A DNA stretch of 64,000 bases from a phage. The position numbers were made by a program, and so were the translations under genes. The notes under the pieces were generated by a model. It ran no database searches and was not told where the DNA came from. It saw only the letters and a program-made list of their open reading frames with translations. Shown here in pieces: positions 49,867-53,535 of this stretch. The stretch lies in the sequence record PX880099.1; one strand, written 5' to 3'. Within the stretch, counting starts at the first letter, position 1, and each line of letters starts with the position of its first letter.

Positions 49867-50808
49867 TTAATAACCTCCTTCAAAAGGCTTTACTACATGT
49901 TGATTAGCTTTAAAACGTTCAACATAGTCGTTTTCACCCATGTTTTCATATAGTTTAGTAACAACATAAAAGTTTTCCCAAGCATATTCCCTAAACCAAC
50001 CACTAGTGATGGATGTGCAGACTTTAGATAAAGCCATTATAAAACTTTGCTTAGGGGTTGGACCTCCGATCTCTTCACCGAAAGGAATTTGTGAACGTTC
50101 CAAAGCCAAAACACACGCTTCTTCATAAACACCTAACAGGCGCACATGTTTTGGTTGAGCAAAAAACTTTTCTTTGCTGGTCATAACTTCACTTCCATCT
50201 TTCATATAAGATTTATATGCTGGAGCATCCATTACCGCGATTGCTTCATGGATAGAATCATGATCATAAACATACGGAACCTCATCACCTTTAAAGAAGT
50301 CTTTACTTTTTACGTTTAAGTTTGGATGAGAGTAAGTGTATGTTTCTTTCTCACGCAACTCATAAATACTCTTAAGATTTTCTGGGATCTTTGCGCCCAG
50401 TGATCGCATGAAATGAATATCTTTCATAGTTTTAAAGAAGTGAGGACTATCCTTTTTAAAACGATGACTCATTTTAAGAAGGTAGAGCACATCTAAAGGA
50501 GCAACAACGTGTCCAGCGTAAGTTCGACGAATATCATCAGAGTCTTCACAATAACTAATCAAAGCTTCTGTGCTATCTCCTTGAGAAGCAATATCGTATT
50601 CCAAATGTGCACCAGCTATCATTTTGACATGGCCTTTGTTCCCTTTACGTTCTACAAGTTCAACAAACTCATCTTGAGAGAACATTTTTGATAATTCTTC
50701 CCACTCTTGTTCTGTACACAGGTAATCTAGATCTACACAAGGGCGATACAAGTCTTTTCCCATGTCCATAGCATGAATTTGTAATGCACGGCTACCAATT
50801 AACACCAT
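49867..50808 (-). CDS. hypothetical protein, fold unassigned
   Basis: 313 aa ORF, SD GAGGAGAAA; N-terminal IGSRAL...DLD loosely reminiscent of a nucleotidyltransferase motif. Confidence 0.5.
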   Translation of the reverse strand: MVLIGSRALQIHAMDMGKDLYRPCVDLDYLCTEQEWEELSKMFSQDEFVELVERKGNKGHVKMIAGAHLEYDIASQGDSTEALISYCEDSDDIRRTYAGHVVAPLDVLYLLKMSHRFKKDSPHFFKTMKDIHFMRSLGAKIPENLKSIYELREKETYTYSHPNLNVKSKDFFKGDEVPYVYDHDSIHEAIAVMDAPAYKSYMKDGSEVMTSKEKFFAQPKHVRLLGVYEEACVLALERSQIPFGEEIGGPTPKQSFIMALSKVCTSITSGWFREYAWENFYVVTKLYENMGENDYVERFKANQHVVKPFEGGY

Positions 50809-50838: not shown

Positions 50839-50868
50839 AGTTTATCAAGCTTCCAGATTCCTGTCAAT
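50839..50868 (-). promoter_or_regulatory. sigma70-type promoter (TTGACA-17/18-TAAACT) on minus strand
   Basis: Reverse complement TTGACAGGAATCTGGAAGCTTGATAAACT just downstream of the terminator. Confidence 0.45.
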
Positions 50869-50890
50869 AAAAAACCCGCCGAAGCGGGTT
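50869..50890 (-). terminator. rho-independent terminator (ACCCGC-TTCG-GCGGGT plus T-run)
   Basis: Same sequence as the plus-strand terminator at 46128-46150. Confidence 0.65.
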
Positions 50891-50898
50891 ATTATTTA

Positions 50899-51171
50899 CT
50901 AACACATTGAGGAAGAAGAGATCCAAACACCTCTTGTGGTTAAACCATTTTCATCCAACTCTACACCATAATCTTCACAAATGAAATCAATATAGTGATC
51001 TGCGGCTGGCGTTCCTGTAGGGTAATAAGTTTCTCCGTTACCGTAGTCACCTATCCAAGCTTGTTCCTGGAACTGTTCACAAAGTTCTTCAATTTCCTTA
51101 CGAAACTTTCTTTGTGCTTGTTCCATCTCTTTAACTTTCTTTTTTATCAGCAGTTCGCCTTCAGATTCCAC
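50899..51171 (-). CDS. paralog family C member 1, small acidic protein (GTG start)
   Basis: C-terminus GVWISSSSMC shared with two neighbours. Confidence 0.5.
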   Translation of the reverse strand: MESEGELLIKKKVKEMEQAQRKFRKEIEELCEQFQEQAWIGDYGNGETYYPTGTPAADHYIDFICEDYGVELDENGLTTRGVWISSSSMC

Positions 51172-51180
51172 AATCTCTCC

Positions 51181-51399
51181 TTAACAGCTACTACTGTGCC
51201 AAACGCCTTGAGAATTAACGACGAAACCATCATCACCTTCACCATAACAAGAAGAGGATTGCCAATCTTCAAAACAGATTGCGTCATTTTCTAAACTAAG
51301 ACCAAAACCAGCATCTTCAGCTTCTTTTGTAAGTTCGTCCACTAAAGCCATAATAGCTTGGGCTTTTTCAGTTAATTCTTCAACATTACGATCACTCAT
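51181..51399 (-). CDS. paralog family C member 2, small acidic protein
   Basis: ATG (MSDRNVEE) after GGAGGAG; C-terminus GVWHSSSC. Confidence 0.5.
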   Translation of the reverse strand: MSDRNVEELTEKAQAIMALVDELTKEAEDAGFGLSLENDAICFEDWQSSSCYGEGDDGFVVNSQGVWHSSSC

Positions 51400-51674
51400 T
51401 AGTATTTCTCCTCCGGTTGGAAAACTGAACGACAAGCCCACATACTAGCTTCTTTTAAATGTTTAATAGCACAACGGATTTGATCAATACGTTCGTATGC
51501 AAGATCTAATTCTTTTTCTGTGCCGTCAAAAGACCCATGATATGCTTCACAATACTCTTCCTCTAAAGCTTTGAAGATTAAACCTAAACGCTCTTCTGCA
51601 TCTTTAATAGCGTTAACCTTGCCAATCTTATCGTCAGTATGCGCCTTATAACCTTTGATATCTTCGATTCCCAC
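51399..51674 (-). CDS. hypothetical protein (GTG start)
   Basis: GTG after TAGGAGG; track start is TTG. Confidence 0.4.
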   Translation of the reverse strand: MGIEDIKGYKAHTDDKIGKVNAIKDAEERLGLIFKALEEEYCEAYHGSFDGTEKELDLAYERIDQIRCAIKHLKEASMWACRSVFQPEEKY

Positions 51675-51685
51675 TTTACCTCCTA

Positions 51686-51883
51686 TTAACAACTTAAAGA
51701 AGATGGATGCCAATTTGTTCCAGTATTCTCATTTTCATCTTCTGGATCATAATAACCACCCATCCCATATTCAGGGGAGAAACGGAAACCTTTACCAGTC
51801 TCATCTGCTAACTGCTCTGCTTCCGCTAAAGCCTCATAAGCTGCTTTTACGGCTTCTTCTACTGTTTTAAACTTGGTCGTCAT
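51686..51883 (-). CDS. paralog family C member 3, small acidic protein
   Basis: C-terminus NWHPSSLSC; SD GGAGAGGAG. Confidence 0.5.
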   Translation of the reverse strand: MTTKFKTVEEAVKAAYEALAEAEQLADETGKGFRFSPEYGMGGYYDPEDENENTGTNWHPSSLSC

Positions 51884-52157: not shown

Positions 52158-52648
52158 AAAACCTCCTCAATCTTGTAGTTTGACTCCATCTCCAACACAT
52201 TTCCACGAACGTCTCTCCGAAGAAAGGCATAAGCTTTATTAGGTATTGTAGACTCATATTTAACCATATCTGGCACAGCAAAAGATACTACTACTCCTGC
52301 TGGGCTTCTGTCAAGAGCCTTATTAATATTTCTAAGGATATCGTTAGCCAAGATTTCTGCCAATTCTCCAAGAACAGTTTCGGTTATATCTTTATATCCC
52401 ATTAAGTATTTGTTGATATCTTTCATCTCTGTATTGTTCAGAGTATAGTCCAAAGGATAGAAATTCAAAGCGGAGTCACTTTTATGTGTCCACATGAAAT
52501 GCACCCGATCCGAGCAGAATCGTAACCCTCTGTGAAGAATATCTTCTACAACAGGGAGAATTTCTTTTGTCACATCATTAACCATGTTGTAATCTAAGAT
52601 TTCTGCCAAGTTTGTTCTTTGTTCACCACGTTTACGTTTAGGAATCAC
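52136..52648 (-). CDS. hypothetical protein (GTG start)
   Basis: 170 aa ORF. Confidence 0.45.
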   Translation of the reverse strand: MIPKRKRGEQRTNLAEILDYNMVNDVTKEILPVVEDILHRGLRFCSDRVHFMWTHKSDSALNFYPLDYTLNNTEMKDINKYLMGYKDITETVLGELAEILANDILRNINKALDRSPAGVVVSFAVPDMVKYESTIPNKAYAFLRRDVRGNVLEMESNYKIEEVLWQSSDQ

Positions 52649-53219
52649 TTGTTATTGCCCTCATTACCAAAGGTCGTAGAAAATCGTAAATCTCTTGTTT
52701 TGTTTTCCCACGAATGTTTAAACAAGGAACATTATTGGCTTTAGCTATCTTCCAAGCCGTAGCTGTTCCACCTTTTGCATCTCCATGTTTATCAGTATTA
52801 GCACAAGCCAACAAGAAACATGATGGAGCAGGATTCTCCAAATCTCTACCTAACACTTGATGCACATTACGTTGGTGCAATTTTCTAGCACCCTGCTTAA
52901 GCTTTTCATAGGCTGGGTGAACATCTTTGATCCATTGCACAGAGATAGCATAGTTCATTGTATCTGGTTTTGCAAGAACAATAACATCCCCTGGAATCTG
53001 ATTACCTTTGAAATTTTCCCAAGGAACATAAATCTCCTTGTTAGTAGGATTTTCAGACTCTTGGACACCTGTTTCAAAAGCAGAATCACTACCCTCTGCC
53101 TTCCCAGACCTTAATTTAAACCCAAGGTTTGAAAGCCATTTCCCTATGCCTACCATCAAAGCCCACTCTTCTTCGGATATGTCTCTACTTCCAACTCCCG
53201 TATAGAACAGTTCTGCCAT
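52638..53219 (-). CDS. DprA/SLOG-like Rossmann-fold protein
   Basis: ATG (MAELFYTGVGSR) after GAGGTG; TGVGSRDIS and LRSGKAEGSDSAFETG resemble the DprA nucleotide-binding core. Confidence 0.4.
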   Translation of the reverse strand: MAELFYTGVGSRDISEEEWALMVGIGKWLSNLGFKLRSGKAEGSDSAFETGVQESENPTNKEIYVPWENFKGNQIPGDVIVLAKPDTMNYAISVQWIKDVHPAYEKLKQGARKLHQRNVHQVLGRDLENPAPSCFLLACANTDKHGDAKGGTATAWKIAKANNVPCLNIRGKTKQEIYDFLRPLVMRAITSDS

Positions 53220-53226
53220 AATCACC

Positions 53227-53535
53227 TCAACAAGTAATTTCAAAAGGTGTATAGGGTTCCGTATTTCTCATGATCCAAGGACTGCTAGGATTGCTCGGAT
53301 CATAAGGACCGAAAGGTTTTATGGTAGGTTGTGTTTCTTTCTTCTGAATCTCTTCAAAAATACGACGAAGTTCAGAATATTCTTGATCCACCATAAGATT
53401 CGGTGCATCTGATTCTACAGCTTGCAGGTTATTTTCCTTAAAAACAACCTCACGAACAAGATTAACATCCTCTGTTTCTAAGATAACTTCTTTACGGATA
53501 TTACCTACACTTTGAATAATTGTAATCTTATACAT
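53227..53535 (-). CDS. hypothetical protein
   Basis: 102 aa ORF, SD GAGGAGG. Confidence 0.5.
   Translation of the reverse strand: MYKITIIQSVGNIRKEVILETEDVNLVREVVFKENNLQAVESDAPNLMVDQEYSELRRIFEEIQKKETQPTIKPFGPYDPSNPSSPWIMRNTEPYTPFEITC

Follow-up and report, generated by a model that had tools for sequence, protein, structure and literature searches.

The 64,000-nucleotide stretch of phage DNA analysed here (sequence record PX880099.1, hereafter the window) comes from a Phapecoctavirus, a phAPEC8-like E. coli myovirus, and encodes three small acidic proteins, P1, P2 and P3, that share a C-terminal tail of tryptophan, serines and a final cysteine. We propose that these proteins are the "array" half of a two-part phage module, the other half being a protein with DUF7277 and DUF7275 domains encoded beside them, and that the tail is the element that this partner binds and probably modifies. 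On comparative grounds we consider this proposal about evenly balanced between right and wrong. The tail is most likely read by the partner because it is the sole feature common to small proteins with otherwise different bodies, and because the partner is the sole conserved neighbour of those proteins.

An earlier note on this DNA had described three small acidic proteins with a common tryptophan, serine and cysteine ending between positions 50899 and 51883. All three are indeed there as minus-strand open reading frames (ORFs), with isoelectric points (pI) of 4.40 for P1, 4.05 for P2 and 4.31 for P3, and all belong to the PHROG 899 family. The same stretch also holds a fourth gene (51399-51674), which is no member of the family but an ortholog of Acb2/Vs.4. 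P1 (50899-51171, 90 amino acids) begins at a GTG start behind AAGGAGAG and ends in GVWISSSSMC, the tail codons W-I-S-S-S-S-M-C of the ORF translation occupying 50902-50925; its coding sequence is also annotated in NC_048196, and it is of the "GDYGxGxTYYP...GVWISSSxMC" subtype. P2 (51181-51399, 72 amino acids) begins at an ATG behind GGAGGAG, the start that is also annotated in NC_048196, and ends in GVWHSSSC. Its short tail W-H-S-S-S-C (51184-51201) places the cysteine five residues after the tryptophan (W+5), and it is a divergent member with a second, internal copy of the motif, DWQSSSC, immediately before YGEG. P3 (51686-51883, 65 amino acids) is the minimal member and represents the main "AYGMGG.Y.P...W.PSS..C" subtype; it ends in NWHPSSLSC, with the tail W-H-P-S-S-L-S-C of its translation at 51689-51712. 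All three proteins thus have a terminal cysteine, a tryptophan seven or five residues before it and a serine at W+3. The 3-kb stretch around the three genes is matched at an identity of at least 95% by 65 deposited phages.

Chance is excluded as the explanation for the shared tail, because a search of the 681 window ORFs of at least 40 codons with the regular expression W..S.{1,3}C$ returned exactly P1, P2 and P3. Each protein matches PHROG 899 (P1 E 5.1e-14, P2 E 7.8e-6, P3 E 1.2e-12), always aligning at the C-terminal end of the profile, and a hidden Markov model (HMM) of the family built here detects these three proteins and no others in the whole window (P2 at E 1.1e-5 and P3 at E 1.6e-29). 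Profile comparison thus identifies P1, P2 and P3 as homologous paralogs whose likeness extends beyond the tail. PHROG 899 was their only match, with nothing found for them in Pfam, NCBIfam, PADLOC or PDB sequence searches. The literature, searched by motif, family accession, locus tag and keyword, yielded nothing on PHROG 899, DUF7277, DUF7275 or their association.

Relatives of the family are numerous: a word-indexed profile search returned 336, and an exhaustive one yielded 498 clusters at 50% identity. The last residue is cysteine in 244 of 248 retrieved members, so that the tail noticed in the window is conserved in orthologs from related phages. Among the members ending in cysteine, tryptophan stands at position -8 in 243 of 244 and serine at both -5 and -4 in all 244, with serine, proline or alanine at -6. 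No other cysteine is present in 153 members, and the median pI of the family is 4.4. A second motif, F-x-F...(A)YGMGG-x-Y-x-P, is followed by an acidic variable loop. The tail is retained in orthologs of P1 (71-99% identity) and in homologs from T4-like phages (42-57%), the orthologs of the T4-like phages Entb_45 and PEi20 ending in GVWISSSEMC. P0012, a close ortholog of P3 that represents a cluster of 25 sequences from ENA contigs, ends in NRHPSSLSC with arginine replacing the otherwise invariant tail tryptophan; natural loss of function or an error of sequencing would account for this. Among the profile hits, the 912-amino-acid repeat protein P0135 was set aside as a false positive unrelated to the family. 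The label "inhibitor of prohead protease" on a homolog from phage vB_EcoM_ESCO10 was also dropped: in that record (OM386655, locus L003, 2591-5067) ORFs of 65-100 amino acids are named helicase, head outer capsid protein, "inhibitor of prohead protease" and UvsY, and the label is an annotation artefact because the product names there are out of register.

The small proteins are encoded in arrays that combine several body types, and these have in common a helix at the N-terminus and an end that reads W-x-x-S-(S)-x(0-2)-C-COOH; the cysteine is at W+7 in the majority and otherwise at W+5. The body types include the YGMGG type of P3, the GDYGxGxTYYP type of P1, and a P2-like type with an extra internal W-x-x-S-S-C right before YGE, whose pattern F.DW..SSCYGE...W..SSC also occurs upstream of DUF7275 in many T4-like loci. 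T4-like phages add a 65-amino-acid "ELDCAVRTA..." type and a "GFW[YF]xSSMxC" type, and others exist. The number of tail ORFs in the 4 kb upstream of a DUF7275 gene ranges from 0 to 5 per locus, and one locus (L118) has six members that the HMM detects. In some phages five or six tail ORFs stand in tandem (L118, 413-3421; L107, L111 and L124, 3361-6537), with endings as short as W-x-x-S-S-C and W-x-S-S-x-C, and L107, L111 and L124 have an additional tail copy just downstream of the presumed enzyme gene.

The partner gene of the window (49867-50808, minus strand) encodes a presumed enzyme of 313 amino acids that matches PF23942 (E 8e-14) and PF23940 (E 1e-75). It lies downstream of the array on the same strand, 91 bp from the end of P1. 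This arrangement recurs far beyond the close relatives of the window phage. In all three unrelated metagenomic contigs with very diverged small proteins, a same-strand DUF7277+DUF7275 gene of about 325 codons follows the small gene at a short distance; Mosigvirus MM02 and Dhakavirus ESCO10 also carry the gene. When IMG/VR loci were retrieved by the small-protein motif, 41 of 43 had a same-strand DUF7275 gene downstream, no more than about 1.5 kb from the nearest tail ORF; of the two exceptions, one is at a contig end and the other is a jumbo phage with the presumed enzyme about 30 kb off on the same contig. In the 305.8-kb jumbo contig IMGVR_UViG_3300033498_000048 (L046 and L130) a YGMGG-type gene and the DUF7275 gene are about 30 kb apart, and a divergent tail ORF (...CPWISSSESC) lies just downstream of the presumed enzyme gene, not upstream.

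The reciprocal retrieval, by the enzyme motif, gave 80 loci. In the 5 kb upstream the HMM detects a same-strand member at 67 of them and an opposite-strand member at none, and the loci where it detects no member mostly have acidic ORFs that are more divergent but end in a similar way. At least one upstream ORF matches the tail expression in 70 of the 80. The tail expression matches 197 of 1654 upstream same-strand ORFs and 11 of 7621 other ORFs (odds ratio 94, p ~1e-135). Clustering of all neighbouring ORFs of the 80 loci left only the small family and DUF7275 as conserved, the rest being lineage-specific. Other candidates for conserved partners (DprA-like, orf96, orf170, orf137 and Acb2 homologs) were dropped, as each occurs in at most 7 of 84 loci. 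The suggestion of the earlier note that the tail could be a modification or recognition signal therefore gains indirect support from the clustering of tail ORFs with different bodies upstream of DUF7277+DUF7275, although the specific options that the note had named are unsupported, as discussed below.

The presumed enzyme is encoded in 735 of 50,697 deposited phage records, from coliphages, T4-like, Acinetobacter, Pseudomonas, Aeromonas and jumbo phages, as against only seven contigs, all from metagenome-assembled genomes, among 185,579 bacterial and archaeal species genomes; the module is thus viral. Tail ORFs accompany both of the long-form enzymes considered (Acinetobacter Acj61 and Myxococcus Mx1) and none of five relatives whose N-terminal domain is shortened (Gordonia Bachita, Streptomyces BillNye, Vibrio phi-ST2, Vibrio K408 and Alteromonas PT11-V22). 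The short-N-terminus DUF7275 relatives in Gordonia, Streptomyces and Schizotequatrovirus are adjoined by a small protein with the pattern G[WY]Y.S..GG...G...EV.P that looks homologous in all three (L139, 4390-4860; L140, 4249-4584; L141, 3070-3366), and these proteins may be an alternative partner family. A scan of T4 from 40 to 85 kb found neither the small family nor the enzyme gene, so that no T4 gene name or genetics can be transferred to the module.

An alignment of 44 homologs of the partner, in which column identity averages 38%, has 17 invariant polar residues (D26, D28, K112, H115, K126, T127, R135, R152, H183, D184, H187, E229, E230, E237, R238, K262 and R273), and G5, S6, E70 and R116 are nearly so. 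Such a pattern is typical of an enzyme, and catalysis is accordingly presumed. Nucleotidyltransferases of the pol-beta type bear the signature hG[GS]...DxD...[DE] on an N-terminal alpha/beta domain, and the N-terminus of the partner, with G-S...D-x-D...E, resembles it; the pattern is short, and the short-N-terminus relatives are without the E70 segment. Two of the 44 homologs weakly match NTP_transf_5 (best E 0.022) and one DUF4269 (E 0.065), and one GenBank record names its homolog "putative nucleotidyltransferase". That the partner is a nucleotidyltransferase is our working hypothesis. PADLOC gave no meaningful match for the partner, for P1, P2 and P3, or for the ORF nested among them.

We obtained a confident, compact AlphaFold2 (AF2) model of P3, from an alignment of 86 sequences, with a predicted local distance difference test (pLDDT) score of 90.6. 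A helix (residues 8-29) packs on three short strands (33-35, 43-45 and 58-60), and the last turn (61-65), formed by S-S-x-x-C, closes the domain. Foldseek comparison of the model with the PDB gave no structural neighbour (best E 2.3), and BFVD returned uncharacterised family members only, from RB69, Aeromonas phage 31, Acinetobacter PhT2 and Yersinia fHe-Yen9-01. The predicted small alpha/beta fold is apparently new.

In the mechanism that we propose, the DUF7277+DUF7275 protein would bind the tail and probably modify the invariant serine at W+3, the thiol of the terminal cysteine or the C-terminal carboxylate, while each paralog would owe a target of its own to its variable helix and acidic loop. 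The N-terminal G-S...D-x-D...E pattern suggests nucleotidyl- or phospho-transfer as the chemistry. The role of the module would most likely be host takeover or counter-defence, since it lies in an early accessory region and an Acb2 gene is inserted in the array. A more specific version of the proposal, which we regard as possible but clearly less probable, is a phage-specific post-translational "arming", in which one enzyme, perhaps a divergent nucleotidyl- or phospho-transferase, covalently modifies the tails of a whole array of effectors and the bodies aim these at different host targets, for example an immune protein. Candidate chemistries for such arming are O-nucleotidylylation of serine or another phosphoryl-linked modification, dehydration, or chemistry at the terminal cysteine or carboxylate, and it would amount to the logic of ribosomally synthesised and post-translationally modified peptides (RiPPs) applied to folded proteins for counter-defence.

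Several points weigh against tail binding and modification by the partner. The mechanism is drawn from comparative genomics, with both the interaction and the modification inferred. In the AF2 model of P3 the tail tryptophan lies inside the beta-sheet, and the tail is thus no free peptide. The variable spacing of serine and cysteine, with the cysteine at W+5 or W+7, argues against chemistry that forms a fixed ring. Profile searches of the PDB with the whole partner and with its N-terminal domain gave no match, hhalign of the partner against kanamycin nucleotidyltransferase (1KNY/6UN8) returned a probability of 0.6%, and a single-sequence AF2 model of the partner was unusable (pLDDT 32.5). At between 5 and 10 of the 80 enzyme loci, a tail ORF could not be recognised within 5 kb. 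Finally, a terminator and a separate promoter stand between the array and the DUF7277+DUF7275 gene in the window, and co-transcription is not required. The intrinsic terminator-like hairpin with its T-run (50873-50890, minus strand) is also annotated as a terminator in NC_048196; it closes the operon of P3, Acb2, P2 and P1. The sigma-70-like promoter before the DUF7277+DUF7275 gene (50839-50867, minus strand; TTGACA-17 nt-TG-TAAACT) scores 10/12 in a consensus scan and has an extended -10 TG, and is a consensus match only.

The same conserved linkage could be read the other way round, with the small proteins regulating or inhibiting the DUF7277+DUF7275 protein in the manner of an antitoxin or a regulatory subunit, and the tail, by its terminal thiolate and carboxylate with a serine close by, plugging or ligating the metal site of the enzyme and keeping it inactive until needed. 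Type II toxin-antitoxin systems have the gene of a small acidic protein upstream of a larger gene, and the module likewise has one or more small acidic genes directly upstream of a larger, enzyme-like gene. The invariance of the tail would fit docking in an invariant active site, and the many invariant basic residues of the presumed enzyme could hold an acidic partner. We nevertheless consider this unlikely, as a simple inhibitor would hardly need up to about five paralogs with different bodies for each enzyme, the window has separate transcription signals for the array and for the enzyme gene, no PADLOC or toxin-antitoxin family match was found, and nothing points to the enzyme being toxic.

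The transcription signals would also suit small proteins that act alone on host targets, whether as inhibitors, as mimics or as sponges that bind a ligand by means of the glycine-rich YGMGG loop and the W..SS..C turn, with DUF7275 merely co-inherited in a mobile accessory island. The proteins are small, acidic, fast-diverging and duplicated in tandem, like many anti-defence proteins, and have Acb2 nested among them, and their compact fold, with conserved glycine-rich and serine-rich loops, could form a pocket. This is somewhat less likely again than regulation of the enzyme. The linkage is kept in Phapecoctavirus, T4-like, ~100-kb Pseudomonas and jumbo phages and in Myxococcus Mx1 while other neighbours are replaced, and at the loci retrieved by the enzyme motif the members detected by the HMM are always upstream on the same strand. 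Different bodies that keep only the tail in common point instead to one common reader of the tail, and the proteins do not resemble Acb2, Tad1 or any sponge of solved structure.

The specific options of the earlier note fare worst. Lipidation of the CaaX kind requires a cysteine at -4 followed by aliphatic residues, and a lipobox cysteine follows an N-terminal signal peptide. Although the proteins are acidic, their C-terminal cysteine is conserved and ClpP- or HslV-like peptidases are encoded nearby in some phages with the module, it is very improbable that the tail is a signal for lipidation, for secretion or for recognition by a protease or that the proteins are DNA mimics, given that the cysteine is last and not at -4, that the N-termini are hydrophilic helices with neither signal peptide nor lipobox, that nothing ties the tail to a protease or to secretion and its tryptophan is in a beta-strand of a compact folded sheet, that the peptidase neighbours are not conserved across loci, and that the idea of DNA mimicry draws on acidity only and leaves the near-obligate enzyme partner unexplained, neither sequence nor fold resembling Ocr, ArdA, Arn or any solved structure.

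The gene between P3 and P2 needs separate comment. It encodes a protein of 91 amino acids on the minus strand that matches the Pfam Acb2/Tad1 hairpin family PF24729 (E 2e-16) and, over its full length, PDB entry 7UQ2, "Vs.4" (E 1.9e-28), and is thus the ortholog of T4 Vs.4/Acb2. Acb2 is a sponge for the cyclic oligonucleotides that serve as signals in cyclic-oligonucleotide-based anti-phage signalling systems (CBASS), and it counters these systems. The minus-strand gene order is P3, the Acb2 ortholog, P2 and P1, tightly packed with a good Shine-Dalgarno sequence on each of the four genes, and the ATG of P2 overlaps the stop codon of the Acb2 gene (TAATG). Acb2 appears to be a lineage-specific insertion into the array, because a related 153-kb phage (L009/L051) has no Acb2 at that position and P2 directly follows P3. 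The nested Acb2 marks an accessory, counter-defence hotspot; it says nothing direct on P1, P2 and P3.

Two further features of the neighbourhood were noted. The window encodes a DprA-like protein (52638-53243, minus strand; PHROG 768 E 2e-62, with a marginal match to Pfam DNA_processg_A) about 750 bp upstream of P3, from which two ORFs separate it, and homologs lie near the module in Acj61 and Alteromonas PT11-V22, the total being 6 of 84 loci. Genes connected with nicotinamide adenine dinucleotide (NAD) or ADP-ribose recur in different lineages within a few kilobases of the presumed enzyme gene, which may be no more than is common in early regions of large phages. They encode Prs-like and Nampt-like proteins in Acj61 and Vibrio K408, Sir2 in the lineage of the window phage and in phi-ST2, NudE in T4-like phages and a macro domain in Mx1 (L142, 6178-8887; L144, 1270-4223; L141, 6266-7027; L145, 687-1184; L001, 2798-3613).

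Comparison with known systems gives partial parallels to the proposed module. Known enzymes of the nucleotidyltransferase fold with protein substrates are GlnD, which acts on PII, GlnE, which acts on glutamine synthetase, and MntA, which acts on HepT, the modified residue being tyrosine. As in these pairs, the module has a conserved, presumed enzyme with a small protein partner encoded adjacent to it, and the layout of GlnD, a transferase plus a removal activity, is loosely like the G-S...D-x-D...E pattern of the partner plus its second invariant set of histidine and aspartate residues. However, the partner has no detectable homology to GlnD, GlnE, MntA or any solved nucleotidyltransferase. 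Those systems modify a tyrosine in a loop, whereas the invariant residues of the module are tryptophan, serine and the C-terminal cysteine, and the module differs further in having up to about five partner paralogs per enzyme and in being confined to phages.

RiPP clusters resemble the module in having tandem, diverged small genes directly upstream of one enzyme, and a C-terminus rich in serine and cysteine. Lasso peptides can be modified at a C-terminal serine, lanthipeptides with aminovinyl-cysteine (AviCys) have the end S-x-x-C-COOH, and NTP_transf_5 proteins occur in lasso-peptide clusters, to which the weak NTP_transf_5 matches of two of the 44 presumed enzymes are a further link. RiPP precursors, in contrast, are unstructured leader-plus-core peptides and not folded domains such as P3 is predicted to be; the module has its conserved part at the C-terminus and its variable part at the N-terminus, and no dehydratase, cyclase, decarboxylase, protease or exporter is conserved near it in the 80 loci. 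Pfam domains of dehydratases, cyclases or cysteine decarboxylases were also lacking among the neighbouring proteins that were searched. A lanthionine or AviCys ring is ruled out as a general mechanism, the serine-cysteine spacing being variable and enzymes of the lanthionine type being absent.

Pup with PafA, LysW with LysX, and ThiS or MoaD with E1-like enzymes form another group of small, often acidic proteins with an essential exact C-terminal residue and an adjacent enzyme gene. In these systems a C-terminal Gly-Gly or Glu/Gln is activated by the neighbouring enzyme, whereas the tail of the module ends in cysteine, the small proteins have no beta-grasp fold, the partner is no E1-like, PafA or ATP-grasp enzyme, and paralog arrays take the place of a single carrier. 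The Acb2 and Tad1 sponges are, like P1, P2 and P3, small phage proteins, and a true Acb2 is in the same operon. P1, P2 and P3 nevertheless match neither PF24729 nor the solved structures, and their predicted fold differs; to our knowledge, Acb2/Tad1 sponges need no partner enzyme. The families to which the three small proteins and the partner do belong, PHROG 899, DUF7277 and DUF7275, were catalogued before without an assigned function. What is new is the two-part module of tail array and DUF7275 protein, and the enzyme may, once its fold is known, prove to belong to a known transferase class as a divergent member.

A C-terminal motif that is so strictly conserved and linked to an enzyme-like partner of its own is usually the mark of a specific chemistry. 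The module is common and viral, and it is readily testable, with small genes and E. coli hosts. If the proposal is correct, and phages do use a new protein modification for takeover or immune evasion, this would be a new class of viral effector maturation. Two DUF families and a large PHROG would gain a function, and the proposal would explain a recurrent block of "hypothetical" genes in phages that are candidates for therapy, such as the Phapecoctavirus group.

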